Shown: positions 30,955-58,836, counted from the stretch's first letter. The stretch: DNA of 64,000 nucleotides from Verrucomicrobiota bacterium (GCA_048498795.1 JBEHXH010000013.1:24717-88716); one strand, 5' to 3'. The notes: generated from the letters alone by a model not told the origin. Made by a program: numbers and translations.

Positions 30955-31010
30955 GGGGTAGGGTGCAGGCGGGCGCGGCCGATAGAGGCCGCGCCCGCGT
31001 TGCGGATTAT

Positions 31011-34945: not shown

Positions 34946-34974
34946 TTGTCACAGGCGCGTCACGCGGTCGTAAC
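34946..34974 (+). promoter_or_regulatory. Pho-box-like element: three 7-mers at 11-bp phase (TTGTCAC aggc GCGTCAC gcgg TCGTAAC)
   Basis: Located 57-85 nt upstream of the porin start (35031), in the shared divergent promoter region with 33349-34869. The architecture matches PhoB boxes (7-bp direct repeats separated by 4 bp). Confidence 0.45.
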
Positions 34975-35030: not shown

Positions 35031-36374
35031 CCTATGCTCCTCAAAAAATCCCTCTGGCTCGCGCTGCTCGGCGGCTCGCTCCTGACTGCCGGCACCGCGC
35101 TGGCGCAAGACAGCGGCCCGCTGCTGAACCTGCTCGTCAAGAAAGGCCTCGTTTCCGATCAGGAAGCGGAAAACCTTCGCGCCGAGCTCGTGAAGGATTT
35201 CACGGCCAACACGTCCGCCGGCAAGCTGAACCTCAGCTCCTCGATCGCTGACTTCAAGCTCTCGGGCGACATGCGCATCCGCGAACAGTACGAGACGCAG
35301 GCTCCCGAGGTGAACCCGACGAACATCACCAACGAGCGCTTCCGCAATCGTATCCGCTTTCGTTTCAACGGTGACGTGACCCTCCAGAAGGGCTGGTCCG
35401 CCGGCTTCGCTCTCGAGACCGGCCAGGCGGCCGACTCGGGCAACCAGACGCTCGGTGACGGTGCCGACGACTACGCGATCTTCCTCGCCCGTGCTTATGT
35501 TGGCTGGAAGCCGAATCTGAACTGGTCCTTCGTGGCCGGCAAACAGAAGAATCTTCTCTACACGACCGATCTCGTCTGGGACGCCGACATCAATCCGCAG
35601 GGCTTCTCCGAGAACTACACCTACTTCCTCGGCGGCAAGGACACCTTCGAGGTGCGCGCCGGCCAGTGGATCATGGACGACCGCCCGGAGAGCACCCCCG
35701 GACCCGCGGGCCGTGACGCTTGGCTCTTCGCCCAGCAGTTCGTGTACACCGGCTACTTCGGCCACGACTCCATCGGCAACCAGCTGAACAGCTTTATCCT
35801 CGCCCCCGGCTTCATGAAGTACAATGGCTCGACCATCGACTTCGCCGCGGCGGCCAACGTCCTCTCCGGCGGCGGTGAGGCGGCCTTCACGGGCACGACC
35901 CGCTACCTGACGACCTTCGTTTTCCCCGGTGAAATCAACTGGGTCGGCATCAACGGCGAAGGCACCGCGTTCAAGTTCTACTGGGACTACGCACACAACC
36001 TGGAAGCCAGCGACCGCGTCTACGGCGTGTACGGTGTCTCCCGCGCTTTCAGTAAGGGTGCTGACGCCTGGCTCGGTGGTATCGGCTACAGCTTCGGTAC
36101 CGGCAAGGTGCAGGGCGACTACAGCCTCAAGCTCGACTATCGCAGCGTCGGCATCGGTGCGCTCGATCCCAACATCAACGACTCCGACTTCGCCTTCAGC
36201 TTCCTGAATCAGGAAGGCTGGAAAGCCGCGCTGTCGTACAACGTGACGGACTTCACCAACTTCAACCTCACCTACTTCCACACGAAGCACAAGCAGGCTG
36301 GCCTCAATCAGGCCACCCTCGCGGCCCGCGATCACACGCAGCTCCTGCAGGTCGATCTGGTCGTGAAGTTCTAA
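35031..36374 (+). CDS. outer-membrane porin, phosphate-selective OprO/OprP-like (by context)
   Basis: Signal peptide MLLKKSLWLALLGGSLLTAGTALA, an alternating amphipathic beta-strand pattern, and a C-terminal ...LQVDLVVKF (terminal Phe). Sits directly upstream of pstS. The longer ORF starts at 34977. Confidence 0.6.
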   Translation, partial: PMLLKKSLWLALLGGSLLTAGTALAQDSGPLLNLLVKKGLVSDQEAENLRAELVKDFTANTSAGKLNLSSSIADFKLSGDMRIREQYETQAPEVNPTNITNERFRNRIRFRFNGDVTLQKGWSAGFALETGQAADSGNQTLGDGADDYAIFLARAYVGWKPNLNWSFVAGKQKNLLYTTDLVWDADINPQGFSENYTYFLGGKDTFEVRAGQWIMDDRPESTPGPAGRDAWLFAQQFVYTGYFGHDSIGNQLNSFILAPGFMKYNGSTIDFAAAANVLSGGGEAAFTGTTRYLTTFVFPGEINWVGINGEGTAFKFYWDYAHNLEASDRVYGVYGVSRAFSKGADAWLGGIGYSFGTGKVQGDYSLKLDYRSVGIGALDPNINDSDFAFSFLNQEGWKAALSYNVTDFTNFNLTYFHTKHKQAGLNQATLAARDHTQLLQVDLVVKF

Positions 36375-36405: not shown

Positions 36406-37230
36406 ATGAAAAAATTCCTCCTCATCGCCTCCGCGCTCGCCGCCGTTTCCGTGGCGAACGCCCAGAAGCTCGTGATCAAGGGCTCCGACACCCTCGGTGC
36501 CAAGCTCGTCCCGACCCTCAAGGAAGCCTACGTCGCGAAGAACCCCGGCGTCTCGTTTGAGATCGCCGCTGAAGGTTCGACGACCGGCATCACCGCCATC
36601 ATCGACAGCACCGCGCAGATCGGCATGTCCTCCCGCCGCGCCAAGCCCACGGAAATGTCCGCGGCTGGTGCCAAGGGCGTTGTCCTCACCCCGACCATCG
36701 TCGCTTTCGACGGCATCGGCGTGATCGTCAACGAGGGCAATCCCGTCAAGAACCTCACCAAGCGCCAGGTCGAGCAGATCTTCGCCGGTGAAGTCACCGA
36801 CTGGTCCGCGGTCGGCGGCACTCCGGGCAAGATCTCGGTCTATACCCGCAACACCTCCTCCGGCACCTACGCCGATTTCAAGGAGCTCGCGATGAACAAG
36901 AAGGATTACGCTTCTTCGTCGCAGAAGATGGCGGGCAACGAGCAAATCGCCGCTGAAGTGGGCAAGAACGCGGCTGGCATCGGCTATGTCGGCCTCGCCT
37001 ACCTCAATGCGCCGGGCACTCGCACTGTCTCGATCGGCGACGGCAAGGATTCCGTGGTCCCGAACAAGGAGACTGTCCTCAGCCACAAGTATCCGTACGC
37101 CCGCCCCACGTTCTACTACACGAATGGCGAGCCTGCGGGTGAGGCGAAGAAGTTCATCGACTTCACGCAGAGCGACGAAGGCCACAAGATCATCGAGCAG
37201 GTCGGCTTCATCGTTCCTCCGCAGAGCTGA
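36406..37230 (+). CDS. pstS: phosphate ABC transporter substrate-binding protein PstS
   Basis: Signal peptide, then KGSDTLGAKLVPTLKEAY...IGMSSRRAKPTE...GIGYVGLAY typical of PstS family PBPs. Confidence 0.85.
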   Translation: MKKFLLIASALAAVSVANAQKLVIKGSDTLGAKLVPTLKEAYVAKNPGVSFEIAAEGSTTGITAIIDSTAQIGMSSRRAKPTEMSAAGAKGVVLTPTIVAFDGIGVIVNEGNPVKNLTKRQVEQIFAGEVTDWSAVGGTPGKISVYTRNTSSGTYADFKELAMNKKDYASSSQKMAGNEQIAAEVGKNAAGIGYVGLAYLNAPGTRTVSIGDGKDSVVPNKETVLSHKYPYARPTFYYTNGEPAGEAKKFIDFTQSDEGHKIIEQVGFIVPPQS

Positions 37231-37339: not shown

Positions 37340-38941
37340 ATGGACTCCACGCCGCCTGACGCGCCGAAGAACTTCCTCGCGAACAAGGCCAAATTCAAGC
37401 TGTTCGGCCTCAACTCCGACGACTTCATCCGGATATTTTTTGGCGGGAATGCCTTCATCTCGGTGGTCGTGCTCGTGCTGATCACGATCTTCCTTTTCCG
37501 CGAGGGCAGTGGATTCCTCGGCCAAAACGACCAGAACCTGCGCGTGTACCGCCAGGCCGGTCTGGAGTACGTCGACCTCATGCGTGCCGAGGTCAATGAC
37601 CATACGGCACTCAATCGTTATCTTTCCGACCTCCGTGTCCGAGCCTACCGTTACTACACGGAGCAAACCGACAACACCCCGGAGGCGGCCAACACCGCAC
37701 TCGCGCCGTTCGACGATTTTGCCGGCAAGTTCAGCGATACAATCAATCCGGTGCGTGGCGTTGTCTCCGACCTCACCGACGTAGCGACCGAGATCAAAAC
37801 CAAGTTTGCCGTCACCGAGGACAAGAAGATCGAGCGCCGCCAACTGCTCGCAGTAGGCAAGACGGTCGAGGCTGCGAAGGTGAAGATCGACGAAGTCGAT
37901 TTCGCCAAGGAGCTGAAGCCGCTGCGCGACGCGCAACCCGCTTTCAAAGCCGCCAATATCGAGCTCACGACCCAGCTCGGACAAGTGCTTGCAGCGGCCC
38001 CCGCGATGCCTTCGCCGGATCTGCAGGGCCGCATGGATCGTTTCAAGAGCCTCACGCGCGATTTCCTCGCGACGCTCCCCACCGTCGAGCACGATCTCGC
38101 CGCGTGGGATTACACGAAGCCGGTGCCTCGCTGGAAGGGCATCACGAGTTTTCTCTTCGGCCGCGAGTGGCTCACGGCGAGTTTCTGGCAGGACTGGTAC
38201 GGCATTGTTCCGCTGCTGGTTGGCTCGCTGATGGTCTCGATTCTCGCGCTGATCATCGCGGTGCCGCTTGGCGTCGGTGCGGCGATCTACGTCAATCAGA
38301 TCGCGTCGCCCGCAGAGCAAAAGCTCATCAAGCCCGCGATCGAGTTCATCTCCGCGTTTCCCTCGGTGGTACTTGGCTTCTTCGGCATCGCGGTGCTGGG
38401 TGAAACCCTGCGCGCGATTTCGCACGTCACATGGCTGAGCTGGGTGCCCGGGTTTCCCTTTAGCGAGCGACTCAACATTCTTACCGCGGGCTGCCTGCTC
38501 GCGCTGATCGCGGTCCCGACCATCTTCACGCTCGCGGAAGATGCGATCAACAACGTGCCGCGCGCTTTCAAGGAAGCGTCGTTCGCTCTCGGTGCGACGC
38601 GCCTGCAGACGATCATCAAGATCATCGTGCCCGCCTCGCTCTCCGGCATCATCTCCGCGGCACTGCTCGGACTCGGCCGCGTGATCGGTGAGACGATGGT
38701 GGTGCTCCTCTGCGCCGGCAACCGCATCGCGATCCCGGATTTCACCGCGGGTCTCGGTGTCTTCGTCCAGCCGGTGCACACGATGACCGGTATTATCGCG
38801 CAGGAAATGGGTGAGGTGCCGCTCGGCAGCATCCATTACCGGGCCCTCTTCATGGTGGGCCTCGTGCTCTTCTTCCTCTCGCTCGCCATCAACTACGTGG
38901 CGCAGCAGGTCGTCCGCCGCTACCGCATCTCCATCGGTTGA
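37340..38941 (+). CDS. pstC: phosphate ABC transporter permease PstC, long form with ~230-aa N-terminal TM + periplasmic extension
   Basis: The C-terminal ~300 aa are a canonical PstC core ([10 protein letters not shown]...[26 protein letters not shown] with the EAA loop). The N-terminal 230 aa (one TM then a hydrophilic domain) are additional. Confidence 0.85.
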
Positions 38942-38945
38942 ACCC

Positions 38946-40022
38946 ATGAGCGCCGAATCCGCCACACTTCCTCCGCCCACCGTCGCACCGGAAAAGCACG
39001 AGTTCCAGACGCAGCCCAACGTGGCGCGGCGCTGGGAAGGTTTCACTTTCTGGTTCTTCCGCGGCTCCACCTATTTCGTGCTGCTGTGCGGCGCGGCGGT
39101 GTTTCTCAACATCGTTGGCAAGGGCTCGCGCACGATCTTCAAGGCCGAGGCACCATTCGTGAACGTCGCGTTCTTCACGCAGGCGCCCGAGTCGCTCTAC
39201 GTCTTCGAGTACCAAGGCAAGAAGGTCGAACTCGGCGACAAGGAGTATCGCGCCTTCCTCGTGCAGCATCCGGACGCAGCTTCGATCAAGGCCGAGAGCT
39301 ATGTGTACTCGGCGGGTGGCATCTTTCCCTGCATCGTCGGCACGATCCTGCTCGTTATCGGGTCGATGACCATCGCTCTCGTACTCGGCGTAGCGGCGGC
39401 GATCTATCTCAACGAGTATGCTCTGGACGGCCCGTTCATCCGCTTCGTGCGTCTCGCGATTCTTAATCTCGCCGGCGTGCCCTCGATCGTCTTCGGCCTC
39501 TTCGGCTTCGGCATGTTTGTGCTCTTCTTCAATTGGAACGTGTCGCTGCTCGCCGGCTGGTTCACCCTCGCGTTCATGGTGCTGCCGGTGATCATCACGG
39601 CCAGCGAAGAGTCGCTCAAGGCGGTGCCGAAAGGTTTCCGCGAAGCGTCCCTCGCACTCGGTGCGACCAAGTGGCAGACGATTCGCACCAATGTGCTGCC
39701 GTACGCGCTGCCCGGCATTCTGACCTCGTCGATTCTCGGCATCGCGCGCGTCGCCGGTGAGACCGCGCCGATCATGTTCACCGCCGCGTATGTGGTCCGC
39801 GACAAGTTGCCGTGGGACGTCGCGAAGTTCAGCGACTTCTTCTTCCAGGGCGTGATGGCACTCCCGTACCACATCTACGTCGTCAGCTCCAAGATCCCGC
39901 AAAACGAGTACACCGAGCGCGTGCAATACGGCACCGCCTTCGTGTTCCTGCTGATCGTGGCCATCATCGCCACCGCTTCGATCCTGCTTCGCAATAACCT
40001 TCGCAACCGCTACAAATGGTAA
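38946..40022 (+). CDS. pstA: phosphate ABC transporter permease PstA
   Basis: EAA-loop motif [26 protein letters not shown] and 6 TM helices. The start is placed at MSAESATL; the ORF-track start at 38811 overlaps pstC and is rejected. Confidence 0.85.
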
Positions 40023-40882
40023 CCGCCGAACCCGTCGCCATGGCTTCCCGCTCATCCGCTTCCACCGCCCGGCCCATGGCCGTGCCGAATACCGGCGCGT
40101 CCGGGCAAGTCCCCGCTCCCGCGGGCCAGACCCTCATCGACATCGAGCATCTCGATTTCTACTACGGCCCCAACAAGGCGCTCCACGACATCAACCTCAA
40201 GATCGAGGACAAGAAGGTCACTGCGTTCATCGGGCCGTCCGGCTGCGGCAAGTCCACGCTGCTCCGCTGTCTCAACCGCATGAACGACCTGATCGACGGC
40301 ACGCGCATCGGCGCCGGGTCGATCAAGATTCGCGGGGTAAACATCCACCAGCACGACGTCGATGTGATCGAGCTGCGCAAGCGCGTCGGTATGGTCTTCC
40401 AGAAGTCCAATCCCTTCCCGAAGTCGATCTACGAGAACATCACCTACGGCCTCAAGCTGCAGGGCGTCAGTGACAAGGCCCGCCTCGATGAAGTCGTCGA
40501 GAAATCGCTCCGCGGCGCCGCGCTCTGGGATGAAGTGAAGGACCGCCTCCAAGCCAGCGGCCTCGGTCTCTCTGGTGGCCAGCAGCAGCGCCTCTGCATC
40601 GCCCGCGCCATCGCAGTCGAGCCCGAGGTTATCCTGATGGACGAGCCGTGCTCCGCGCTCGATCCGGTCGCGACGGCCAAGGTCGAGGAGCTCATCCAGG
40701 AACTCCGCTCGCAGTTCACCATCGTGATCGTGACGCACAACATGCAGCAGGCCGCGCGTTGCTCGGACAAGACGGCCTTCTTCTACATGGGCAAGCTCAT
40801 CGAGTTCGCCCCCACGCGCGACATCTTCATGAAGCCCGCCAATCCGCAGACGGAAGCCTACGTCTCCGGCCGTTTCGGCTGA
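40016..40882 (+). CDS. pstB: phosphate ABC transporter ATP-binding protein PstB
   Basis: Walker [10 protein letters not shown], signature [14 protein letters not shown], Walker [12 protein letters not shown], and an H-loop. ATGGTAA overlaps the pstA stop; an alternative start is at 40040. Confidence 0.9.
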
Positions 40883-40972: not shown

Positions 40973-41632
40973 ATGACCCACTACGCCGAAGAGATGACCC
41001 AGCTCCGAGAGAACCTGCTCTCCATGGCCAGCCACGCGGAGTCCGCGGTGGCGCGGTCCATGCGCGCGCTGGTCGAGCGCGACGACATCCTCGCTCACCG
41101 CGTGCAGGAGGATGACAACATCCTCGACCAGCTCGAGATCGACATTGACGACATCGCGCTGCACCTGCTCGCCAAGGCGCCGCTCGCGACCGATCTGCGC
41201 CTGACGACCGTCGCGATGAAGATCTGCCAGAACCTCGAGCGCGTGGGCGACGAGGCCGTGAGCATCTCCCGCCGCGCGATCGATCTCAACATGGAGCCGC
41301 AGCTCAAGCCCTATGTCGATCTGCCCCGCATGGCGACGATGGCGATCGAGATGATGCGCGATGCGATCACCGCCTTCATCAACCGCGAGCCCGAGCGCGC
41401 CCGCGCCGTGATCCCGCGCGACAAGGAAGTGGACGAGCTCAACCGCCAGCTCCACCGCGAACTCTCCAGCTACATGGTCGAGCGCCCGACCACCATCTCG
41501 CGCTGCCTGCATCTGATGGTGATCTCGAAGTGCCTTGAGCGCATCGCCGATCACGCGACCAACATCGCCGAAGAGGTCGTCTACCTCTACGAAGCGATCG
41601 ATATCCGCCACTCGGGCGCCAAGCACGAATGA
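40973..41632 (+). CDS. phoU: phosphate signalling complex protein PhoU
   Basis: Two PhoU repeats with conserved E(R/D)IGD metal-binding motifs (LERVGDEAV and LERIADHAT). 219 aa. Confidence 0.85.
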   Translation: MTHYAEEMTQLRENLLSMASHAESAVARSMRALVERDDILAHRVQEDDNILDQLEIDIDDIALHLLAKAPLATDLRLTTVAMKICQNLERVGDEAVSISRRAIDLNMEPQLKPYVDLPRMATMAIEMMRDAITAFINREPERARAVIPRDKEVDELNRQLHRELSSYMVERPTTISRCLHLMVISKCLERIADHATNIAEEVVYLYEAIDIRHSGAKHE

Positions 41633-42318
41633 TGAAGCCTAAAATCCTTCTCGTCGACGACGAACCCGATGCGCTGGATGTGCTCGGGTTCAAACTCAAG
41701 GAAGCGGGTTTTGCGCCCATCTTCGCCAAGGATGGCGCTCGCGCCATCGCGGCGGCTCGCGATGAGCGGCCGGAGCTGATCGTGCTCGATCTCATGCTCC
41801 CCGAGGTCGACGGCCTCGAGGTGTGCAAGATCCTCCGCCGCGATCCCGGCACCGCGAGCATCCCGATCCTCATGCTCACCGCACGTGCGGCCGAGATGGA
41901 CCGCGTGCTCGGTCTCGAACTGGGTGCCGATGACTACGTCACGAAGCCCTTCAGTCCGCGCGAACTCGTGCTTCGCATCAAGAAGCTGCTGGCCCGCGCC
42001 AAGACCGCGGATGACACTAATTCGCTGATTCGCTTCGGCGAGCTGGAGATCGATTCGGCCCGCCATCAGGTGAAGCTGTCGACCGAGGCCGTCACGCTGA
42101 CCGCGACCGAGTTCAAGCTCCTCGAAATTCTCGTCCGTCGCCGTGGCCGCGTGCAAACGCGCGACCGCCTCCTGCAGGATGTCTGGGGCTATGAGAACCC
42201 GATCGACAGTCGCACCGTCGACACCCACATGCGCCGCCTGCGCGAGAAGATCGGGGTTGCTTCCGATTATCTCGAGACAGTTCGCGGGGTCGGCTACCGC
42301 TGCAAAGCGGAGGTCTGA
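41629..42318 (+). CDS. phoB: phosphate regulon response regulator PhoB (OmpR family)
   Basis: Receiver domain (ILLVDDEPD...LIVLDLMLPEVDG...ADDYVTKPF) plus a winged-helix domain (RTVDTHMRRLREK...GVGYR). 4-nt overlap with phoU; followed by phoR. Confidence 0.75.
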   Translation: MMKPKILLVDDEPDALDVLGFKLKEAGFAPIFAKDGARAIAAARDERPELIVLDLMLPEVDGLEVCKILRRDPGTASIPILMLTARAAEMDRVLGLELGADDYVTKPFSPRELVLRIKKLLARAKTADDTNSLIRFGELEIDSARHQVKLSTEAVTLTATEFKLLEILVRRRGRVQTRDRLLQDVWGYENPIDSRTVDTHMRRLREKIGVASDYLETVRGVGYRCKAEV

Positions 42319-42412: not shown

Positions 42413-43594
42413 GTGACGCTCTTGGAATGGATTCTTCTCGTCGCCTTCGCGGTGACTTTTCTCTCGCTCTGGCGTGAGCGCGGTGCACGCCGTGCTTCGG
42501 AGGCGCGGCACCGCGAGGAGATGGAGTCGGAGAGCATCCGGCGCGCGGAACAGCTCCGTGGTCAATCGGAGCGCACAGCCGCGCTGTTTGACCGGATGGT
42601 TGAGGGCGTGATTGCGCTCGATCAAACCGGCCGCATCCGCCTCGCCAATCGTGCCGCGGGAGCGATGTTCAATTTCAATCCGCCGGCGACTGGCCGGACG
42701 TTGCTCGAGGCGACGCGGAACCACGAAGTTGCTGCGGTGGCATCGCGCCTCGATACCGAGGCTGAGGTACTCGGCCACGAAATCCGTATCGAGTCGAGCG
42801 CCGCGCCGCGTTTCCTGCAGGTGAATGCCCTCGCGCTCCGCGACGGCAACGGCGTGCGCGATGGCGCGATCCTCGTGCTCCATGACCTGACGGCGCTGCG
42901 GCAGGCGGAGAGCCTGCGGCAGGAGTTCGTGGGCAACGTCAGCCATGAGCTGCGCACGCCGCTTTCGCTCATCAAGAGCGCGGCTGAGACTTTGATCGAT
43001 GGGGCGAAGGATGACCCGTCGGCACTAGTGCGTTTCCTGGAAATCATCGACCGTCACGCCAATCGACTGACGCTGCTCATCGACGATCTCCTCCTACTTT
43101 CGACGCTCGACTCGGGACGCGTGCGACTGGAGCTGCGGCCAGTGCCGATGCGCTCGGTAGTGCAGGAAGCGATCGACGATCTCTCGAACCGGGCGCGCAG
43201 CCGGAAAATGGCGATGGAGAATGCTGTGCCCGCCGGGCTGACTGCGCTCGGCGACGCGACGCGTCTGCAGCAAGTGCTCGGCAACCTCCTCGACAACGCG
43301 GTGAAGTACGGTCGCAACGAAGGCAAGATTCGCATCAATGCCCAGCTCATCGGCGACAAGCTCGTCGAGGTGTCGGTGCGCGATGACGGACCGGGCATCC
43401 CGGTCGAGGCGCAGGGGCGGATTTTCGAGCGTTTCTATCGCGTCGACAAGGCGCGGTCGCGTGAGCAAGGCGGCACAGGCCTCGGTCTCGCGATCGTGAA
43501 ACATGTCGTGCAGGCGCACGGCGGCGAGGTGCGGGTGGAGAGCGTAGTCGGGCAGGGCGCGGTGTTTTTCTTCACGCTGCCGGTGGCGAGCTGA
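42413..43594 (+). CDS. phoR: phosphate regulon sensor histidine kinase PhoR
   Basis: N-terminal TM segment, a PAS-like segment, an H-box (SHELRTPLSLI), an N-box (LLDNAVKYG), and G-boxes (DDGPGIP, GGTGLGLAIV). Confidence 0.75.
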   Translation: MTLLEWILLVAFAVTFLSLWRERGARRASEARHREEMESESIRRAEQLRGQSERTAALFDRMVEGVIALDQTGRIRLANRAAGAMFNFNPPATGRTLLEATRNHEVAAVASRLDTEAEVLGHEIRIESSAAPRFLQVNALALRDGNGVRDGAILVLHDLTALRQAESLRQEFVGNVSHELRTPLSLIKSAAETLIDGAKDDPSALVRFLEIIDRHANRLTLLIDDLLLLSTLDSGRVRLELRPVPMRSVVQEAIDDLSNRARSRKMAMENAVPAGLTALGDATRLQQVLGNLLDNAVKYGRNEGKIRINAQLIGDKLVEVSVRDDGPGIPVEAQGRIFERFYRVDKARSREQGGTGLGLAIVKHVVQAHGGEVRVESVVGQGAVFFFTLPVAS

Positions 43595-43602: not shown

Positions 43603-45153
43603 TTATCCGCCGCGGGCGAAGGGCTGTTTTTTTCCGTTCGGTAAAGCGTTGTCGAGGTGGACAAGGGCACCGCCGAAGAGAAGGCGACGTTGCTCTGAGG
43701 AAAGGCCCGGCTCGAGGGTGGCAACGCGGTATTCCTCGTAGGCGTCTTCGGTGGCCTTGTAGAGAGCGAAGCGCGTGACGGCACCTAGGGCGGCAGCCAG
43801 TTGGCGCGGGTCGTCGGTGCCCAGAAATGTGGCGACGTCGGTTTGCAACGATTTCACCTCGGCCGTGAGTTGGTCACGTTTCGCCTCGTAGGCATCGATG
43901 ATTACCGCGAGCTGTTCGCGAAATCGATCGATCTGCCTTCCTCCCACGGAGCGAGGATCGCGCGACTCTTGATCGGGGATCACACGCAACCGCAGGTCCA
44001 AGCCTTGATATTCCATGGTGAAGACGGCGGGCAGATTTGGATACTGCGCCACGACGGCGTCGATCAGCGGCATCGTATCGCGCTGCAGCGCGCGACGCTG
44101 ATCAAGCACGGCCGCGATACGGCCGGTGAGGATCGGTGGCAGCGGCGACGTGACTGTATGCTTGATCGGCGGACGAGCGGCCTGGTGGCCGACGCGAATT
44201 TCTTCAGCGAGTTTTTCGAGCTTAGTGAAGCGCGGGGCCTGATTCTGGGCGAGGCGCTCGTAGGCCGGGGTGCGAAAGATATTCAGCGGCACGTTGTCCT
44301 TGGTGATTACGAGATCGATGAGTTCTTGCTTGAGCGCGGTCTTGAGCTGCTTGAAGGCGAAGACTTTCTCCGCAAGTGCACCGCTTGGCTCGGGGTCGAG
44401 CTTTACGCGGGAAGTCTCGGGCAGGAAGTACAGCGCGGAGTCGGGCAACGGCACATTGGCCGCGTCGCGCGGCTGAGCAAAAATTTCTTGCGCAATCTCG
44501 CGCAGTAGACGGCGCTGGGCAGGCGAGAGGCCGTCCTGATAGTAGGCGGTGGCGCGCATGACCTCCGCCTTTTCGTAGTCGCTATAGCCGCCCTCGGTCA
44601 GGCTCCACATGCGATGGGCGGACCAATCGTTGGACCAGCGGGAGATTTCGTCGCGCAAAGTCTCGCCCTCGCGCTCAAGCGCGGCGATCAGCGGAGTTTG
44701 TTTTGCCGCGAGCTCCTGCAAGGCAGCAAGGCGATCTGCGCGGGGGAAATCGTGCGTGCGCTCGAGCTCGGCCCGCAACTCGACGAGGAGATTGTCGCGC
44801 GCGATACGGTAGTGATCGAGCCGATGCCGGATCGGGAGCGAGAAGTCTCGTGTTGCGAGACGCGTCGCGAGCATCGCGTAAAACGGCTCGTCGAGATAAA
44901 GTGCCATTTCTTCCGGCGCGGCAAACGGCCCGCCTGTCGGCACCGAGGCTGCGACCGAGAGATCTCCGAGAGCGGGCGTGATGGGCGGAAAATATACCGG
45001 CTTAAGCGAACCGCGAGGGACGGCCGGTTGCTCCACGCTGTCGGGTGCGCGCAGCGGAGGGAGCGGGGCGTTGGTGTAACTCTCTCCGTCAGCCAACGCT
45101 AAGGATGGCGCGATCAAGACCAGACAACCGCGGCAGCAGAGTGATAGGCGCAT
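43603..45153 (-). CDS. secreted protein of unknown function, paralogue family B member (tandem copy 3 of 3)
   Basis: Signal peptide, then VYFPPITPALGD, LYLDEPFYAMLATRL, IRHRLDHYRIARDNLLVELRAELERTHDF, and a C-terminal LEPGLSSEQRRLLFGGALVHLDNALP. Confidence 0.6.
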   Translation of the reverse strand: MRLSLCCRGCLVLIAPSLALADGESYTNAPLPPLRAPDSVEQPAVPRGSLKPVYFPPITPALGDLSVAASVPTGGPFAAPEEMALYLDEPFYAMLATRLATRDFSLPIRHRLDHYRIARDNLLVELRAELERTHDFPRADRLAALQELAAKQTPLIAALEREGETLRDEISRWSNDWSAHRMWSLTEGGYSDYEKAEVMRATAYYQDGLSPAQRRLLREIAQEIFAQPRDAANVPLPDSALYFLPETSRVKLDPEPSGALAEKVFAFKQLKTALKQELIDLVITKDNVPLNIFRTPAYERLAQNQAPRFTKLEKLAEEIRVGHQAARPPIKHTVTSPLPPILTGRIAAVLDQRRALQRDTMPLIDAVVAQYPNLPAVFTMEYQGLDLRLRVIPDQESRDPRSVGGRQIDRFREQLAVIIDAYEAKRDQLTAEVKSLQTDVATFLGTDDPRQLAAALGAVTRFALYKATEDAYEEYRVATLEPGLSSEQRRLLFGGALVHLDNALPNGKKQPFARGG

Positions 45154-45244
45154 CGGATGACGGGGTGATCTCCAGAGTACGCCGCGAGTATCGGCTAACT
45201 ATATACATCCGGCCAGCCGAAATTAATCATCCATTTGGCCAATG

Positions 45245-46831
45245 TCAGCGGGTGGGACTCGCGGTGGGCTGAGCCACGGCGGAGGGCAGAGCGATGTCGA
45301 GTCGAGCGAGGCCGGCGCCAAAAAGCAGGCGGCGCTGCGCGGGGGAAAGTCCCGGTTCGAGCGCGGCCGCACGATACTCGGCGAAAGCGTCGTAAGTGGA
45401 TTTGATGAGGGCGTGCTGAGCCGTCACACCGATGACCGCACCGATTTTCACGGGGTCGCTCGTGCCGAGAAAAGCTGCGACCTCGACCCGCACCGCCTCG
45501 ACTTCCTTCGAGAGTTCCTCGTAGCGATCGTCGTAACGGCTCATGATGGCCGCGAATTCGAGCCGGAATTTTTCGATCTCTCGTCCTTTGGCCGACTCCG
45601 GGTCGCTGGCGCCGCCGTACGGAATAAGTTTAGTGACCAGCCGGTTGCCGCGCAACTCCGCTATGAGTGTGGCGGGCAGCTTCGGATAGCGCGCGTTGAG
45701 CTCGTTGATCTCGGCCATCGTGTCGCGGTGCAGGGCGCGACGCAAATCGATCACGGCGGCGATGCGACCGCTCAACACGGGCGGCAGGGGGGAAATCGGG
45801 GTGCGTGGGCGCGCAGGCTTGGTGGCGTCATACGCGCGCCGGATTTCCTCGGCGAGCTCCTCAAGTTGGGCGATGCGCGGTGCCTGTTTTTCCGCGAGGC
45901 GTTGAAACGCCGAGGTGCGTAGGAGGGCCAGCGAGCGGTTATCCTCTTTTGCGACCGCAGCACGAAGTTCCTCCTTGAGGGCGGTCTTGAGCTGCTGAAA
46001 TTCCGCTAGCTTGGTGGCCAGCGGGGTATCGTATTTCGCGACGATGCGCACTTGTGCGCCCTCGGGCAGGAAGGCGACGACATTGTCGCGAAGGGCGTCC
46101 TTTCGTCGCCTGGGTTGTGCTCCGAGGATATCGTTGGCCGCTTCGCGCAGCAGGCGGCGCTGCGCGAGAGAAAGCCCGTCCTGAAAATACGCCATCCCGC
46201 GCATCGCTTGGGCCTCATCCTTGTCCGTATACGCGTTTTTTCCGTCGCCGAGGCGCCAAACGCGTTTGGCTGACCAATCGTAGGTGGATTTGGAGAACGC
46301 GTCGCGCAGGTCCTCAGCGGTTTGCTCAAGCTCGGCGAGCGCAGGCGCCTGTTTCTTCGCGAGCATTTCCAATGCGGCTAGGCGATCCTCACGAGAAAAG
46401 TCCGCGGTGCGTTCCAGTTCCGCGCGGAGCTCGACGAGGAGGTTGTCGCGGCCGATACGATAGTGATCCAGCGGATGCCGGAGCCGCATGGTGAAATCGT
46501 CCCCGTCGAGCCGCGCGGCGAGCACCGCGTAGAACGGTTCATCGATGTAGAGCGACATCTCCTCGGGCGCATTGGCCACGCCACGGGCAGCAACGGAGGA
46601 GCTGGGCGTGGTATCGCCCATCCCGGGCGGTATAGGCGGATAAAAGACGGTGACGGGCTTCGGCGGGCTATCCCGCACGTTGAACTCGGGCATCGGACGG
46701 TTGTTCGGATCTGCCCGCGGCTCGGGCGGCGGAATGTAAGTAGGCTCGTCGGCGTAGACCGCACCAGCCAGTAGCCAAGCAAGAACCGGTCCGCACCAGC
46801 AACGGCGACTGAAAACATGACGGGGTGGCAT
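45245..46831 (-). CDS. secreted protein of unknown function, paralogue family B member (tandem copy 2 of 3)
   Basis: Signal peptide (VLAWLLAGAVYA), then FYPPIPPGMGD, LYIDEPFYAVLAARL, LRHPLDHYRIGRDNLLVELRAELERTADFSREDRLAALEMLAKKQ, and a C-terminal LEPGLSPAQRRLLFGAGLARLDIALP. Confidence 0.6.
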   Translation of the reverse strand: MPPRHVFSRRCWCGPVLAWLLAGAVYADEPTYIPPPEPRADPNNRPMPEFNVRDSPPKPVTVFYPPIPPGMGDTTPSSSVAARGVANAPEEMSLYIDEPFYAVLAARLDGDDFTMRLRHPLDHYRIGRDNLLVELRAELERTADFSREDRLAALEMLAKKQAPALAELEQTAEDLRDAFSKSTYDWSAKRVWRLGDGKNAYTDKDEAQAMRGMAYFQDGLSLAQRRLLREAANDILGAQPRRRKDALRDNVVAFLPEGAQVRIVAKYDTPLATKLAEFQQLKTALKEELRAAVAKEDNRSLALLRTSAFQRLAEKQAPRIAQLEELAEEIRRAYDATKPARPRTPISPLPPVLSGRIAAVIDLRRALHRDTMAEINELNARYPKLPATLIAELRGNRLVTKLIPYGGASDPESAKGREIEKFRLEFAAIMSRYDDRYEELSKEVEAVRVEVAAFLGTSDPVKIGAVIGVTAQHALIKSTYDAFAEYRAAALEPGLSPAQRRLLFGAGLARLDIALPSAVAQPTASPTR

Positions 46832-46943
46832 GTGCAGATAGGAAAGGCCGGCGTTTGCGTCGGATCAATCGAAAGCTACGACATGAAATGATCGTAGGTT
46901 ACACCCTTTATCGGGCTGCGACACACGCGCGCGGACCTCCGCT

Positions 46944-48491
46944 CTATCGGCGACCGCGGCCTGTAGGTTGCGGCTCGGCCGAGGGGAGCGCGATGTCCAG
47001 ATGACCGAGGCTGGCACCAAAGAGCAAGCGACGCTGTTCGGCGGAGAGACCGGGCTCGATGGTGGAGATACGGTACTCGGCGTAGGCTTCTTCGTTGGCT
47101 TTCGCCATGGAGTAGATCGCAACGACGCCGAGGGCATCGTTGATTTTTTGCGGGTCGGTGGTGTTGAGAAAAGCGCCCGCGTCGGCGCGCAGCGACTCGA
47201 TTTCCTTTTTCAGAGCATCGAGCCGATCGTCATAGCTATCGAGCGCCACGCGCACTTCTTTGCGATATTTTTCGAGCATCCGGCCTTGAGGAGACTCGGG
47301 ATCGTTGGCGCTCGGGTAAGGGATGATACGGGTCACGAGCTGCGTCCCGCGAAATTCCATCACGACCGTCGCGGGAAGATTGGGGTAGCGGGGATTTATC
47401 TCGTTGAGCGCGTTGATCGTGTCGCGCTGGAGCGCGCGGCGCATGTCGAGCACGGCGGCGATGCGCGCGGTCATCAGGGGCGGCAGCGGAGAAAGCGGCG
47501 GGCGCGGACGCGGGGGACGAGTCGCATCGTACTCGCGGCGGATGTCTTCGGCGAGACGCTCCAGACGAGCAATACGGGACGCCTGCTGCGTCGCGAGACT
47601 TTGATAGGCGTTGGTGCGGATGAAACCGAAGATCGTATCATCCCGCTGCAGGACGAGGGCGCGCAGTTCATCCTTCAGCTCTTTCTTAAGACGCTTGAAT
47701 TCCTCGGTCTTGGCCGCGAGCGGGGTGCCGTCGGTCACGGGTATGCGGATACGCGAACCCTCTGGCAGGAACGCGACCACGAAGTCTCGCGGGGGTGAAG
47801 CGGGCTTTTTCCCGGTGCGAGCGGGGTCGTTGAGTACGTCATTGGCGGCTTCCCGCAAAAGGCGGCGCTGCGAGGTCGACAACCCGTCTTGGTAAAATGC
47901 CACGGCGCGCATCACCTCGGCTTCATCGGAGGCGGAATATTCGCGGGTGCCGTCGCCGAGGCGCCAGTTGCGAATCGCGGACCAATGATATGCGGATTTC
48001 GCGAACGACTGCCGCAGTTCCTCTGCGTCGTGTTCCAGCGCTGCGAGCGCAGCGGCCTGTTTCTTCGCCAGCTCCTCAAGGGCGGCTAGTCGGTCGTCTC
48101 GGGAAAAATCCGACGTGCGCTCCAACTCGGCGCGAAGCTCAACGAGGAGATTGTCGCGGGCGATGCGGTAGTGATCCAGCGGGTGCCGCAGCCGCATGGA
48201 GAAATTGTCCTCGTGCAAACGGGTCGCGAGGATGGGATAGAACAGCTCGTCGACGTAGAGCGACATCTCCTCGGGGGCGCTGGCCATGCCGCCCTTGCCG
48301 AGTGACTCACCCGGAGAGGATTCGCCCATGCCCGGAGGAACGGGCGGAAAGAAGATGGGGTAGGGCTTTATCCATACGTCACGGTATTCTGCTGGGGGGG
48401 ACGAATCCAACTGCGCTCGAACCGCTGCCGCCGACCACCACGCCAAGCCTGCGACCACGGCGATCCGCAGGCACTTGGGGTGGGAGGGCAT
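46944..48491 (-). CDS. secreted protein of unknown function, paralogue family B member (tandem copy 1 of 3, directly downstream of pitA)
   Basis: The start is chosen at MPSHPKCLRIAVVAGLAWWSAAAVRA (signal peptide); the longer ORF start at 48617 would overlap pitA. It contains FFPPVPPGMGE, LYVDELFYPILATRL, LRHPLDHYRIARDNLLVELRAELERTSDFSRDDRLAALEELAKKQ, and a C-terminal IEPGLSAEQRRLLFGASLGHLDIALP. Confidence 0.6.
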   Translation of the reverse strand: MPSHPKCLRIAVVAGLAWWSAAAVRAQLDSSPPAEYRDVWIKPYPIFFPPVPPGMGESSPGESLGKGGMASAPEEMSLYVDELFYPILATRLHEDNFSMRLRHPLDHYRIARDNLLVELRAELERTSDFSRDDRLAALEELAKKQAAALAALEHDAEELRQSFAKSAYHWSAIRNWRLGDGTREYSASDEAEVMRAVAFYQDGLSTSQRRLLREAANDVLNDPARTGKKPASPPRDFVVAFLPEGSRIRIPVTDGTPLAAKTEEFKRLKKELKDELRALVLQRDDTIFGFIRTNAYQSLATQQASRIARLERLAEDIRREYDATRPPRPRPPLSPLPPLMTARIAAVLDMRRALQRDTINALNEINPRYPNLPATVVMEFRGTQLVTRIIPYPSANDPESPQGRMLEKYRKEVRVALDSYDDRLDALKKEIESLRADAGAFLNTTDPQKINDALGVVAIYSMAKANEEAYAEYRISTIEPGLSAEQRRLLFGASLGHLDIALPSAEPQPTGRGRR

Positions 48492-49594: not shown

Positions 49595-50230
49595 TCAGGA
49601 GTGCTTGAGCACGATCTGCACGACGATGTTGCCTGCGCTGCGGCAGCGATCCACCGCGCGTTCCACCATCTCGAGCAAGTCTTGGATAATCACGAGCTCC
49701 TTGGCCGTGCACGGGCCGGAGTAGAGCTGCTTGAGCTGCGCGAGCATGACCTTGTCGGCCTCGCCCTCGGCGAACTGGAGGCGGTCATTGGCCTCGCGGA
49801 TGCGCTCGATGCTCGTTCCGCCGCGGAGCTGCTTCACCATCTCGACCACTGCATCGGCCGCCTGCGAAAGCAGCTCAGCCTGGCGGGCAAACAAATCCGG
49901 CGGCAAGCGCCCGGGGTAGATCGAAATATGCTCGGCGACCTTCTCGACCTGCTTCGGGATGCGGTAGAGGGCGAACGACAACGCCTCGATGTCCTCGCGC
50001 TCGAGCGGCGTGACGAACGTCCGGCTCAGTGCCTCGGACATCTCGTGGCGGATGCGCTTCTCCTTGCGGCGGCTCTGGGTGAAGGCGTCGAGCGCCGACT
50101 GGCCGCCAGAGGAGACGGTCTGGAGATACTGGGCGAAGAGCCCGACGCTCACCTTGGCCTCTTCGGCACCGGCTTCGAGGAGATCGAAGAACTTGTCGTC
50201 TTTCCCGAGGAGTTTTTTCAGCGAAAGCAT
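49595..50230 (-). CDS. DUF47 (PhoU-like) Pit accessory protein
   Basis: MLSLKKLLGKDDKFFDLLEAGAEEA...; a ~200-aa helical protein immediately upstream of and co-directional with pitA, the conserved DUF47-PiT pair. The longer ORF start at 50359 is rejected. Confidence 0.7.
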   Translation of the reverse strand: MLSLKKLLGKDDKFFDLLEAGAEEAKVSVGLFAQYLQTVSSGGQSALDAFTQSRRKEKRIRHEMSEALSRTFVTPLEREDIEALSFALYRIPKQVEKVAEHISIYPGRLPPDLFARQAELLSQAADAVVEMVKQLRGGTSIERIREANDRLQFAEGEADKVMLAQLKQLYSGPCTAKELVIIQDLLEMVERAVDRCRSAGNIVVQIVLKHS

Positions 50231-50252
50231 GGCCGGTGAGCTACCGGGCCAT

Positions 50253-50277
50253 GTTACAAAAGCGATACAAATTACAA
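50253..50277 (-). promoter_or_regulatory. Pho-box-like direct repeats upstream of DUF47-pitA (TTGTAAT TTGTATC gctt TTGTAAC in gene orientation)
   Basis: Heptamers related to the TTGTCAC/TCGTAAC units upstream of the porin-pst operon, with 7-4-7 spacing for the last two. It lies only ~22 nt from the annotated ATG, so the geometry is uncertain. Confidence 0.3.
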
Positions 50278-50282
50278 TCCGG

Positions 50283-51071
50283 TCATATCTTACCACGCGC
50301 CCAAGCCCACAGGTACCCGATCCGCTCATAGGCCGCGGAGGTGGTGCGCTGGAGGGCATCGAGACTGAAGAACCAGTCGCGCCAGCTGCTCTCCTCGCTG
50401 GGTTTGGATTGGAAGTCGGTGGGGCAGGCGAGCGGCGTGAGACCCTGACGGCGCATCAGGCCCATCGCGCGCGGCATGTGCGAGGCGGAGGTGACGAGGG
50501 CGAACGGCACATCGGGGCCGATCATGGTCTTGAGCTCGATGGCTTCGTTCTCGGTGTCGCGCGGTGTATCCGCGGTGAGGATACGCTCGCGCGGCAGGCC
50601 CATCGAGACGGCGGCGCGGGCGAGCACGCTGGCATGGCTCGGGCGGCCCGGCGCGCCGGCGCCGGTGACGATGAGCTTTGCCTCTGGCAATGCGCGCGAA
50701 AGACGCAGTCCCTCAGTGAGGCGGCCGCCCGCCGCGCCGCTGAGCGCGATGGTGGCGGGCAGCTCTTTCGATCCGCTATGACCACCACCGAGGACGACGA
50801 TGTACTTGCACGCGGCGAGCTTGGGCGGGAGCGGTGCGCCTGCGACCAGCTCGGGCACGGGATCGTACTGGCCCTCGATCGAGTGAATCAGGAAATTGGA
50901 TACAGGGTTGTTGGCCGCGAGGAGGAGCAGGCCCACGCCGGTGCCGATCATGATGCGGCCGAGACGCTGGTGGCGCTTCGTGCGCGTCAGCAGCCAGCCG
51001 ATAAGAACGAGCAACGTGCACGCCTGCAGCGGCATGATCCAGAAAGTGATGAACTTCTTCAGCCAAAACAT
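50283..51071 (-). CDS. DUF218 family protein (YdcF/ElyC/SanA-like envelope biogenesis factor)
   Basis: N-terminal TM anchor, then ...YIVVLGGGH...LIVTGAG...DTENEAIELK...ALVTSASHMPRAM typical of DUF218. The start is chosen at MFWLKKF. Confidence 0.6.
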   Translation of the reverse strand: MFWLKKFITFWIMPLQACTLLVLIGWLLTRTKRHQRLGRIMIGTGVGLLLLAANNPVSNFLIHSIEGQYDPVPELVAGAPLPPKLAACKYIVVLGGGHSGSKELPATIALSGAAGGRLTEGLRLSRALPEAKLIVTGAGAPGRPSHASVLARAAVSMGLPRERILTADTPRDTENEAIELKTMIGPDVPFALVTSASHMPRAMGLMRRQGLTPLACPTDFQSKPSEESSWRDWFFSLDALQRTTSAAYERIGYLWAWARGKI

Positions 51072-51212
51072 CCGCCGAGCGAAGCGGTCTCGTCTGTTCC
51101 CGGCGAGCGTCGAGTTGCGCGCTAAACGATTTGACCTCGTATCCCCTTCTTTCGGGACACGTCTTGCCATGGACTGCGCGGGGTCGCCCCTGTTAATCTC
51201 TATCTATCCCGC

Positions 51213-52847: not shown

Positions 52848-53057
52848 ATGAGCACACCGCCGTGGAAAAAATCCAAACCCGACGCAGCGGCGCCGAAGGC
52901 GAAGCTCACGCCGGAAAGCGTCGAGTGGGCGAAAGCCCGCGCGAAGGCCGCAGGCCGGCGCTATCCCAATCTCGTCGACAACATGGCCGCGGCTCGCCGT
53001 CAGCGCGAAGCGCAGCAAGGCGAGCCGGGCGGGTTGGGCAGTCTGCCCGCGCCTTAG
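52848..53057 (+). CDS. small basic hypothetical protein (69 aa)
   Basis: Lys/Arg/Ala-rich ORF ending 4 nt inside the convergent AsmA gene; coding status uncertain. Confidence 0.2.
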   Translation: MSTPPWKKSKPDAAAPKAKLTPESVEWAKARAKAAGRRYPNLVDNMAAARRQREAQQGEPGGLGSLPAP

Positions 53058-56000
53058 CGCAGGAGAGCACCCACGCCCGCCTTCGCGACCATCGCCCAGA
53101 GGGCTTTCGAGTCCGGATTCGCGGCGGTGCCACCGACAGAGAAGCTCTCGCTCATGAGATAGTAGCCCTTGTCGTCTTGCTCGTTCTTGAGGAGGCGCAG
53201 GCGATTGAGCACCACGGCGAATTGATCTTTCGCAGCAAGCTGCACGCTGATCTGCATCGGCTGCTGGTCGATCGGCACATCCTTCTGGAACGTGATGCCG
53301 CCGGTGCCGGTGATACGCTTGTTGGGCGAGATGAACTCGAGGTTGGTGAGCTTGAGGTTGAGATCCGCGCCACGCTCGACGTGGAGTGAGAATTTGTCGA
53401 AGGCCATCTCCTTGAGTTCGCTGGCGAGTTCTCCGGCAGCTACTACTCCGTCAGACTTTGTGACAAATGCTCCGATGAGTTGGGTTGCGCCGCCCAAAAC
53501 TCCCGCAACTTCGCCCTTCTTGCCGAGCGCGCGGAGCGTGCCGGCGGTGCCGGTGACATCGAAGACGCCGTAGCTATTTTGGATGAGATCGTTCATCGTA
53601 CGACCGGAGCCATTGAGCTTTGCGTTGACGGAGACCTTGGTCTCGATCGCGGGCTTCTCGTTGGGATTGGCCGCGCGGAGGATTTCGCCGAGGTCGAGAT
53701 TGGTGACCGTGGTGTTGCCGGTGAGCGTGTATGGTGTCGGCTTCTTCGGATCGAAGGTGATCACGCCGACGAGCTTGAACGGGTTCTCCTTGAAGCGGCC
53801 TTCGAGGCTGTCGACGCCGAGCTTGGTGTCGTTGACGACGAAGGAGCCCTTCACGCCGCTGACGATGTAGTCGCGGCCGTAGACGATCTTCTTGAGATCG
53901 GTGTCGAGCTTGGCGGTGACGCCGGACCAGAACGGCACGGTGTCGCGCGCATTGGCGGCGGGAGTCACGGGCTTGGTCGCGACGGCCGGAGCGAGGGTGG
54001 GCTTCGCGGGCGTGGTGGCGACCTGCGGCGGAGTTGCGGGAGCGAGCTCGCTAAAGGCCTGCAAGTCGTCGGCGAAGAGCTGCGTGCTGGAGAGCTTGCC
54101 GGTGGCGGAAATGGCGGTGCCGGTTTTTGCGAAGCTGCCCTCGAACGTGACATCGGAGCGGCGGTCGCCCGCGGTGACGACGAGCGGGAGTTTCACGACA
54201 CCGCTGCCATCGGCCTTGAGCGAGGCGACGGCGCTAACCTCGACGGTGCCGAGCGCGGCGCCGGTTTGCTTCACGATGAGATTGCGCGCGGTGACGACGG
54301 CCTTGACCGAGGTGGTGTCGCCGACGCTGCCCTCGAAAACGGTGGCGACATTGCCGCGCGAGAGCGTAGCGTACGGCGCGAGCACGGGCTGAGCGAGCGC
54401 GGCGGCGACGTCGGCCTCGAGATTGCCCTTGGCGGTGGCGCTGAACTTCGCGCCGAGATTGGCCTCACCGGCGGCGACGACCTTGAGCACGGTGGCCTTG
54501 CCCTGCGTGACCTCGAGACGACGTACATCGTACGTAGCGACATCGCCCTTCTTCGTGGCGGAGAGGTCAACGGCGACGTCGAGGTTTTGCGCGAGCTTCT
54601 GGTTATCGAGTGTCACGCTGGCGCCGCGGACCACGAGCGGCTCGGTGGTGCGGAGTGCGAGGTCATCGGCGCTGCGTGCGCTGACTTCGAGGGCTGCGCC
54701 CGCGAGCACGCCGGCAAACTGCGACTTCGGCACGAAGGCCTGCGCCCACGCGAGCGGGATCTCGCCGAGGCGCACGGTGGCGGCGGGCTTGGCGGGATCG
54801 TTGAGCGCGATGGTCGTCTTCTGCAGATCGAGCGTGAGCGGCTGCTTCGTTTCGAGCGCGAGCAGGAGCGCGTTGTTGGCCTGCTGCGAGGCGGTGACGA
54901 ACATCTTCGCCAGCGCAAGCGTCTGGCCCGAGAAACGGCCCTCGGCGGAAACGGCGCTCACGATCGGACCGGGGTCGAGGGGCAGGTACGGCTTCAACGC
55001 GGCGATGAGCTTGGCATCGAGCTGCGCGGCGAAGTCGATCACGGGCGTCTTAGCGAGATCGGTGACGGATGCGGAGAGCTTGCCGCCGACGGCGTCGCCC
55101 GCCGGGAGGGAAATTTTCAGCTCGGTGAGCTCGGCGGTGATTTTTTCCGCCGTGTAGTCGATCTGCGGGCGGACAGAGAGGGCGAGCTGCTCGACGAGCT
55201 TCTTGTCGCCTTGGCGCACGGTGACGGCGCGGAGCGTGAGCGGGTCGATGGCGCGGACGGCGATGCGGCTGCCATCGGCGCTGGCCTCGACGCCGAGCGT
55301 GAGCGAGAGATCACCGCTATCGATCGCGAGCGGCTTGGCGACCGGCTGCGCCCACGCGAGCGGGAGCGCTTGCACGGTGACGCGCGCGAGCTGGGCCTTC
55401 GGGTCGGCGAGCGTGACGCGCTTGTCGGCGACGGAGAACGAGACCTTCTGCAGCGTGGCGACCTGCGCGAACTTGCGGCCATCGGTGCCGGTGACGTCAA
55501 GCTCCAGCTTGTCGAGCTGGGCGACATTGTTGGCGAAGCGCGCATCGAAGGCGGTGCGGACCTGCACGGAGCCGACAGCGGCGAGGGCAGGGGAAAGTTT
55601 TTCGAGCTGGGCGGCGGTGGCGTTGAGCTCGCCACGCGCGGAAGCGGCGTTGGTGGTCGGGTCGAAAGTAAACGCGCCGTTGCCCTGTGCGGTCAGGTCG
55701 GGCAGACCGAGACCGGCGAGCAGCGCGGCGAGCTGACCGCGGTCAGCACCGAGCTTCCACGTGCCGGCGAACTGATGCGCAGCGGCCTGATACTCGATGT
55801 TGGAAGAAAGGAGCGGGGCGGGATTATCGGCGCGGATGAAGCCGACGGAGAGGGCGTAGGTCTCGTTGCCGCCGGCGGTGGGCTGGTCGGCCTTGAGCGT
55901 GACGCGCAGGCGCTCGGCGGGGAGGTTGGGGCCGCTGGCGGTGGCGATGGTCTCGAGTTCGACGGAGTCGACGCGGCGGTCGGCGGCGAGGTGCAGCGCG

Positions 56001-58720: not shown

Positions 58721-58836
58721 GCGGCAGAGCAACGGGCGTGGCGGAGGTTGTCCAGTCCGGGTGACTGCCGAACGGTCCGCCCGGTGCGCTTTTGACTGTC
58801 GCCCGTGGCGCGCGCGCATTATGGAGTTTCCCCGCG

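Follow-up and report, generated by a model that had tools for sequence, protein, structure and literature searches.

Results and Discussion

Four paralogous genes in a phosphate gene cluster

The DNA analysed here (hereafter the window) is a stretch of 64,000 nucleotides (nt) from a Verrucomicrobiota bacterium (GCA_048498795.1, JBEHXH010000013.1:24717-88716), with a high G+C content of around 63 %, and this work deals with four paralogous genes in it, designated famA, famB, famC and famD, which lie among genes for phosphate uptake and its regulation and whose products are candidate periplasmic accessories of these systems. A previous examination without database searches (the sequence-only reading) had pointed out three of them as tandem copies downstream of DUF47-pitA and the fourth as a more distant copy divergent from a porin gene. 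Open reading frames (ORFs) and translations agreed with the position of all four on the minus strand, the spacers described there turned out to be exact, and Pfam identified the neighbours as DUF47-pitA on one side and the convergent porin-pstSCAB-phoU-phoBR cluster on the other. The features of the region, in window coordinates, are as follows:

33349-34869, minus strand: famD, from ORF and translation; 506 amino acids (aa) with a signal peptide; fourth, diverged paralogue, divergent from the porin-pstS operon
34946-34974, plus strand: Pho-box-like triple direct repeat TTGTCAC-N4-GCGTCAC-N4-TCGTAAC, from sequence, pattern search and position weight matrix (PWM); points to the porin gene
35035-36374, plus strand: putative phosphate porin (Porin_5; Pfam PF16930, E 3.5e-21)
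36406-37230, plus strand: pstS (Pfam)
37340-38941, plus strand: pstC (Pfam)
38811-40022, plus strand: pstA, start uncertain (Pfam)
40016-40882, plus strand: pstB (Pfam)
40973-41632, plus strand: phoU (Pfam)
41629-42318, plus strand: phoB (Pfam)
42413-43594, plus strand: phoR (Pfam), where the cluster converges with famA
43603-45153, minus strand: famA, third tandem paralogue; 516 aa, with 8 nt between its stop codon and that of phoR
45245-46831, minus strand: famB, second tandem paralogue; 528 aa, the copy chosen for the AlphaFold2 model
46944-48491, minus strand: famC, first tandem paralogue; 515 aa from the ATG at 48491, 26 nt past the pitA stop codon
48518-49579, minus strand: pitA, phosphate transporter of the PHO4 family (Pfam PF01384, E 4e-96)
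49595-50229, minus strand: DUF47 / PhoU_div gene (Pit accessory), start corrected (Pfam PF01865 and sequence)
50253-50288, minus strand: Pho-box-like sites TTGTATC-gctt-TTGTAAC and an adjacent weaker copy, from pattern search and PWM; 23 nt 5' of the DUF47 start

The 26 nt between the pitA stop codon and the famC ATG are followed by spacers of 112 nt (famC-famB) and 91 nt (famB-famA). The ATG was preferred as the start of famC because the longer ORF from a GTG, which extends to 48617, would run into pitA and have no signal peptide. About 43 codons are in excess in the DUF47 ORF listed as 49595-50359, whose likely start is the ATG at 50229 (MLSLKKLLGKDDKFFDLLE...); a DUF218 gene is located upstream, at 50283-51170, and its synteny with DUF47-pitA is kept in many relatives. 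The porin ORF as listed begins with a TTG at 34977 and the likely start is the ATG at 35035, which leaves an intergenic region of 165 nt between famD and the porin gene. On the distal side of famD, away from the porin, the minus strand carries, within 26597-32990, an SPFH/Band-7 gene (31011-32990, separated from famD by a gap of 358 nt), kdpA (28680-30494) and kdpB (26597-28699).

Extent of the family and divergence of the paralogues

A word-indexed search retrieved 169 homologues, a full profile hidden Markov model search of 1.84 billion representative proteins gave 573 representative clusters, and a scan with one genome per species yielded 161 relatives, the closest relative among the species-representative genomes scanned being 39 % identical. 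The named homologues, as well as all 79 loci used below for context analysis, came from assemblies of Opitutaceae, Opitutales or Verrucomicrobiota, with the exception of two probable mislabels. This taxonomic spread, together with the presence of only 573 matches in 1.84 billion proteins, indicates that the family is restricted to a lineage, where its members are annotated as 'hypothetical protein'. Judged by these sequences, the family that includes famA-D is restricted to one lineage (Opitutaceae / Opitutales) and consists of proteins of around 500 aa, predicted to be exported by the Sec pathway. No paper on this family was found in the literature on phosphate biology of Opitutaceae and on pitA-DUF47 operons. 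The Opitutaceae are abundant freshwater and soil degraders of polysaccharides, living under phosphorus limitation.

In an alignment of 55 sequences (A2), 21 positions are invariant and around 45 are near-invariant, many being occupied by Arg, Lys, Trp, Tyr or Gln, and the conserved blocks quoted in the sequence-only reading can be recognized in the alignments. That reading had also given the tandem copies as about 85 % identical and hence recently duplicated, which proved incorrect: identity is 50 % between FamA and FamB, 49 % between FamA and FamC and 58 % between FamB and FamC at the amino acid level, and 56-64 % at the nucleotide level. The best 100-aa window among these copies is 66-77 % identical, and 76-90 % is attained in just a single 50-aa block. 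Given the overall amino acid identity of 49-58 %, both gene conversion and a recent duplication of famA-C were rejected. The three tandem genes form one cluster in a neighbour-joining tree built with 76 relatives, which points to a triplication that is old and peculiar to this lineage; a tandem pair of family genes that arose independently is present in a different genome (L007). FamD is only 28-34 % identical to FamA-C, yet it keeps every family-invariant residue, and in the tree it groups with L034_13716, itself adjoining pstS.

Protein architecture and searches for known relatives

The four window proteins have a signal-peptide-like N-terminus, as had been noticed before, with K/R residues, a hydrophobic core and an A-x-A (4/4), and a similar segment was detected by a crude hydropathy test in 47 of the 55 family members. 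No lipobox was found in the family alignment, and the window copies contain at most two Cys beyond their N-terminal 28 residues. From their sequences, the proteins of the family would be located in the periplasm. Along the chain, the signal peptide is followed by a proline-rich linker with an invariant F-P-P-x-P-P and by three tandem long helical-hairpin repeats, revealed by an hhalign self-comparison of the N-terminal with the C-terminal part, in which repeat 2 matched repeat 1 at E 1.2e-12 and repeat 3 plus tail matched repeat 1 plus tail at E 3.3e-11. A conserved helix, G-L-S-x-x-Q-R-R-L-L, closes repeats 1 and 3. The AlphaFold2 model of FamB, built from A2, reached a predicted local distance difference test score of 85 and a predicted template-modelling (TM) score of 0.81, and consists of a predicted disordered N-terminus, the conserved F-P-P-x-P-P segment, long helical hairpins with helices of up to 42 residues and two small beta-hairpins. 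The isoelectric point of family members varies from 5.4 to 9.8 (median 8.6) with a net charge of about +2, and a reading of these proteins as a polyanion 'sponge' was rejected on these values.

The sequence-only reading had recognized no enzymatic motif, and Pfam, NCBIfam, PDB-profile and structure searches uncovered no characterised domain of unrelated function. No family match was obtained with famA-D in Pfam (E up to 1) and NCBIfam, and nothing consistent appeared in Pfam with 55 members scanned singly (E up to 0.1) or with 10 isolated repeat segments (E up to 10). When the family profile was compared with all PDB sequences nothing meaningful was found, the best match (E 0.011) being a FliG-like coiled segment, and structural searches with the FamB model gave no specific fold match. 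The top Foldseek matches were of the ClyA/Nhe/Smh type and not significant (best E 0.067, TM scores 0.12-0.20); these are likewise elongated bundles of long helices with small beta-hairpins, but the family has neither their hydrophobic beta-tongue nor a toxin context. Longer homologues showed no informative domain fusions. One homologue of 683 aa (P0141) has a PHO4 fragment N-terminal to the family domain, probably as the result of a merged or frameshifted pitA-family gene call, and this would be consistent with tight linkage to pitA.

Two further kinds of protein deserve comparison. PhoU and DUF47, the latter encoded by the first gene of the unit that contains the family genes, are likewise helical-bundle repeat proteins of pst and pit operons; however, they are cytoplasmic and recognized by Pfam, whereas the family has signal peptides and gave no PhoU or PhoU_div match in famA-D or in the 55 members. 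The pairs LuxP-LuxQ and TorT-TorS, and PstS as the periplasmic part of Pst/PhoR signalling, follow a common logic that gene order also suggests here, with an exported protein encoded beside a membrane transporter or kinase, but LuxP, TorT and PstS have the two-lobed alpha/beta fold of periplasmic binding proteins (PBP), whereas the family consists of all-helical repeat proteins and famA-D showed no PBP match of the PstS type in Pfam. Since the defining profile and fold features of the LTXXQ proteins (see below), PBP (PstS), PhoU/DUF47 and ClyA were each looked for and did not appear, the family is not a member of any of these groups, and we rated it as new and unrelated, with a role of a kind already known, namely to assist a transport or sensing system from the periplasm.

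Linkage to phosphate genes in related genomes

The phosphate proteins of the window were mapped by tblastn onto a context sample of 79 loci from 79 different assemblies (of the 161 relatives), designated by L and a number and amounting to 1.26 Mb in total with 82 family genes; L041 is from a cultured isolate, Horticoccus sp. 23ND18S-11, and linkage was defined as a distance within 2.5 kb. The association with pho genes anticipated from the window was found across these assemblies in several independent gene orders: 53 of the 82 family genes lie at most 2.5 kb from pitA, DUF47, pstS, pstC, pstA, phoU or the porin gene, and the same holds for 35 of 53 when only genes flanked on either side by 3 kb or more are counted. 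Because phosphate genes occupy well under 1 % of a genome, this enrichment is very large. At least six phosphate-linked gene orders were observed, involving five classes of phosphate gene (Pit, Pst, porin, Na/Pi and ppk1) and several paralogue clades:

Same strand, directly after DUF47-pitA: 28 genes
Opposite strand, between pstC and pstS: L001, L007, L008, L009, L011, L019 and L034 (e.g. L011:2576-6823)
After a second pstSCAB-pstB operon: L006, L027 and L052
Divergent from the porin gene: famD of the window, L057 and L064
Divergent from a Na/Pi cotransporter-PhoU fusion: L013:7914-9812, minus strand, with a Pho-box-like site in between
Convergent with ppk1: four loci, e.g. L035 (1909-4173), L041 (around 13653) and L062 (around 13900)

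The insertion between pstC and pstS parts porin-pstS from pstCAB-phoU-phoBR, and a Pho box is located in the intergenic region shared by pstC and the family gene. The linkage could be nothing else than synteny inherited within one bacterial family, the protein having an unrelated envelope function, as might be suspected from the origin of every locus in Opitutales, the presence of around 30 % of the family genes in non-phosphate contexts and the lack of a recognized functional domain. Against this explanation, which we consider very unlikely, stand the diversity of gene orders, phosphate gene classes and paralogue clades, the operon-like spacing (the gap behind pitA is 26 nt in the window, and 28 relatives directly follow a pitA gene on their own strand) and the Pho boxes 5' of the units.

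Pho boxes and transcription of the family genes

The pattern TTGTMAY-N4-TTGTMAY, with up to two mismatches, has three matches in the window. Two of them are at 34946-34963, between famD and the porin gene, and at 50253-50270, 5' of DUF47. The former, continued by a third phased repeat to 34974, reads TTGTCAC-aggc-GCGTCAC-gcgg-TCGTAAC, i.e. three 7-mers with an 11-bp phase, and corresponds to the Pho-box-like triple repeat that the sequence-only reading had placed in the region shared by the divergent famD and porin genes. The third match (17119-17136, minus strand, TTGCAACAACTTCGTAAC, PWM score 13.1) falls in a zone of ambiguous ORF calls, with no recognized phosphate gene nearby. Across the 79 loci there are 44 pattern matches, 29 of them intergenic, and most of the intergenic ones precede pstC, pstS, porin or ppk1; the strong match 5' of ppk1 in L035, L041 and L062 suggests that this gene is part of the Pho regulon there.

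Sites were also scored with a PWM whose training set consisted solely of the pst, porin and ppk sites of other genomes, the threshold (11.3) being the 98th percentile of random windows. The famD/porin box scored 20.9 and 16.0, and the sites upstream of DUF47 14.2 and 12.2. Scores above the threshold were obtained upstream of pstC in 17 of 27 cases, of porin in 8 of 9, of DUF47 in 10 of 32 (with a conserved variant, TTGTTTCGCAATCGTAAC) and of promoter-proximal family genes in 8 of 57, and upstream of none of the 19 operon-internal family genes. In seven of those eight promoter-proximal cases a divergent pst or porin-like gene has the region in common with the family gene, and in the remaining one (L013) the Na/Pi cotransporter gene does. 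The DUF47-upstream variant, TTGTTTC-N4-TCGTAAC, is present in L016, L017, L022, L025, L041, L049, L057, L064 and L073, has its window counterpart at 50253-50270, and differs from the TTGTCAC-N4-TTGTAAC form of the pstC and porin promoters. These results define the Pho box of this clade and indicate that the DUF47-pitA-fam unit carries one. The segment 50253-50288 is thus probably the promoter region of a DUF47-pitA-famC(-famB-famA) unit, and with a distance of only 23 nt from the Pho box to the probable DUF47 ATG the 5' leader would be very short. Neither a Pho box, nor a sigma-70-like site, nor a sigma-54 site above chance was found in the famC-famB and famB-famA spacers, and the simplest reading is that famC, famB and famA would be cotranscribed from the DUF47 promoter.

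Association with a sigma-54-type two-component system in one clade

In L029, L043, L044, L046, L047, L048, L049 and L055, and probably in L045, the family gene is located between those of a response regulator and a histidine kinase. The upstream gene encodes an NtrC-type response regulator with receiver, sigma-54 activator and Fis-type helix-turn-helix domains, and the downstream one a kinase in which two transmembrane segments flank a loop of around 160 aa and whose catalytic core is nearest to ZraS among solved structures. A -24/-12-type element, TGGCACG-N4-GCGCA, has five exact matches in the 1.26 Mb, all of them directly 5' of the family gene or of a small outer membrane protein (OMP) gene preceding it (5/5); in L047 the module spans 83-4434 and the promoter-like element 1173-1188. 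The small OMP, a beta-barrel, is encoded right before the family gene in L044, L046 and L048, where the module is flanked by DUF47-pitA and by a pst-phoU operon without phoBR in that place. This is how genes are arranged when a two-component system has its partner or target in the periplasm, zraP/zraSR or luxP/luxQ being similar cases, and it shifts the role to be considered for the family towards a partner or regulator of membrane proteins and away from a free scavenging enzyme.

The parallel with zraP raises the alternative that the proteins are periplasmic chaperones or feedback inhibitors of the Spy/CpxP/ZraP kind, co-induced with phosphate genes and protecting envelope proteins or damping a kinase, rather than handling phosphate. 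ZraP, CpxP and Spy (LTXXQ proteins) are likewise exported, all-alpha and built of helical hairpins; two conserved L-S-x-x-Q motifs of the family, within its G-L-S-x-x-Q-R-R-L-L helices (residues 219-230 and 494-503 in FamB), resemble their L-T-x-x-Q motifs at helix starts, a likeness limited to the motif level. In addition, the sigma-54-type promoter, the sigma-54 regulator and the ZraS-like kinase mirror, in one clade of relatives, the zraP/zraSR arrangement. Membership in the LTXXQ group, considered on account of these motifs, was nevertheless rejected on profile and hhalign tests, and only a functional analogy was kept: Pfam LTXXQ or Metal_resist had no match in famA-D, in the 55 members or in the 10 isolated repeats, and hhalign with A2 gave E 0.16 and a probability of 0.4 % against E. 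coli Spy, aligning just a 24-residue segment with its LTxxQ motif, and E 0.37 against E. coli CpxP. Homology is thus not detectable, nor is there a specific fold match, and the family has no conserved His or Cys for metal binding. Furthermore, the known proteins have one hairpin in around 100-150 aa and form a cradle-shaped oligomer, whereas those of the family, three to four times larger with around 500 aa, have three hairpin repeats per chain plus beta-hairpins. ZraSR, CpxAR and BaeSR are envelope-stress systems, and the linkage of the window copies is instead with PhoBR, Pit and Pst; so steady an association with Pit, Pst, Na/Pi and ppk genes is not what one would expect of a stress chaperone. 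All in all, we regard a chaperone or feedback inhibitor of this kind as unlikely.

The OMP gene of the sigma-54 unit also bears on a different proposal, namely that the proteins are structural partners of the phosphate porin associated with the outer membrane, for example a periplasmic tether or gate linking the porin to inner-membrane transporters. Besides this OMP gene in L044, L046 and L048, the divergent position of famD and the porin gene, and the porin or porin-like genes adjoining family genes in L019, L021, L024, L057, L064 and L066, would fit such a connection, and helices of up to 42 residues could reach across part of the periplasm. The commonest arrangement, however, is that of the 28 genes located after pitA, with no porin nearby, the family proteins have no beta-barrel, lipid anchor or OmpA-like domain, and the proposal stems purely from gene context, all of which makes it quite unlikely in our opinion.

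A possible periplasmic accessory of phosphate acquisition or signalling

The predicted export, the rigid repeat scaffold with invariant residues, the variety of membrane partners encoded nearby and the placement in sensor-kinase operons lead us to propose that the famA-D family acts as a periplasmic accessory of phosphate acquisition or signalling, a biochemical role that we infer and that we consider about evenly balanced between being right and wrong. Each paralogue would dock on, or report to, the membrane partner encoded next door, be it Pit, Pst/porin or, in relatives, a sensor kinase, and the conserved surface rich in Arg, Lys, Trp and Tyr would probably bind phosphate, metal-phosphate or the partner itself. 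In the window, famC, famB and famA would most likely come last in a DUF47-pitA-famCBA transcription unit activated by PhoB, and famD may be expressed from the region it has in common with the Pho-box promoter of porin-pstS. Expression of famA-D would accordingly be expected to depend on inorganic phosphate, and their products to have a binding or regulatory activity. A broader version, in which the family represents a new-fold class of periplasmic phosphate handlers, a common sensing or delivery module for Pit, Pst/porin and the sigma-54 two-component system with paralogues specialized by partner, appears to us doubtful.

A number of observations weigh against this accessory role. Part of the linkage is inherited synteny, since all the genomes are from one family, and about 25 of the 82 family genes (about 30 %) have no phosphate gene in the fetched flanks, with neighbours such as a CHASE2 adenylate cyclase gene (L015, L042) or ftsY/nusB (L058, L072, L079). 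The Pho boxes near famD and near the relatives divergent from pstC point to the porin or pst gene and not to the family gene, so that the regulation of famD itself is uncertain, and a weak terminator-like hairpin is present in the famC-famB spacer (46897-46876). As for activity, the charge of the proteins is not strongly basic, which makes non-specific polyanion binding unlikely, and phosphate binding is a guess from the conserved residues. The main point of the sequence-only reading, an exported family connected in function with the phosphate genes, nevertheless withstood all the tests applied and gained much in strength, among other things from the linkage and from the Pho box before the DUF47-pitA-fam unit.

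Pst, Pit, PhoBR and PhoU are among the best-studied nutrient systems of bacteria, and Pit-type transporters are considered to stand alone, without a periplasmic component; to our knowledge, no exported helical partner has been described for any of these systems. The presence of the family as the third gene of DUF47-pitA operons, as a gene splitting pstS from pstC and as an insert in a two-component system suggests an extra periplasmic layer of phosphate acquisition or sensing in Opitutaceae. If the proposed role is true, the family would provide a new protein fold, a new component of the Pho regulon and a marker of phosphorus stress for Verrucomicrobia, while it would remain an ordinary lineage-specific 'hypothetical protein' if the linkage is merely syntenic. 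The signal from the genome comparisons is both strong and clean, and the fold is a new one, yet these proteins occur in a single verrucomicrobial family and we infer what they do.

Other genes of the window

Apart from the phosphate region, an ORF of 1203 aa without a Pfam match occupies 53054-56665 on the minus strand, in the most G+C-rich part of the window (around 0.69), and is followed by a gene for a TPR-repeat protein (56780-58846). The minus strand also encodes, at 13271-15061, a bacterial protein homologous to angiotensin-converting enzyme (Peptidase_M2, E 1.7e-96).

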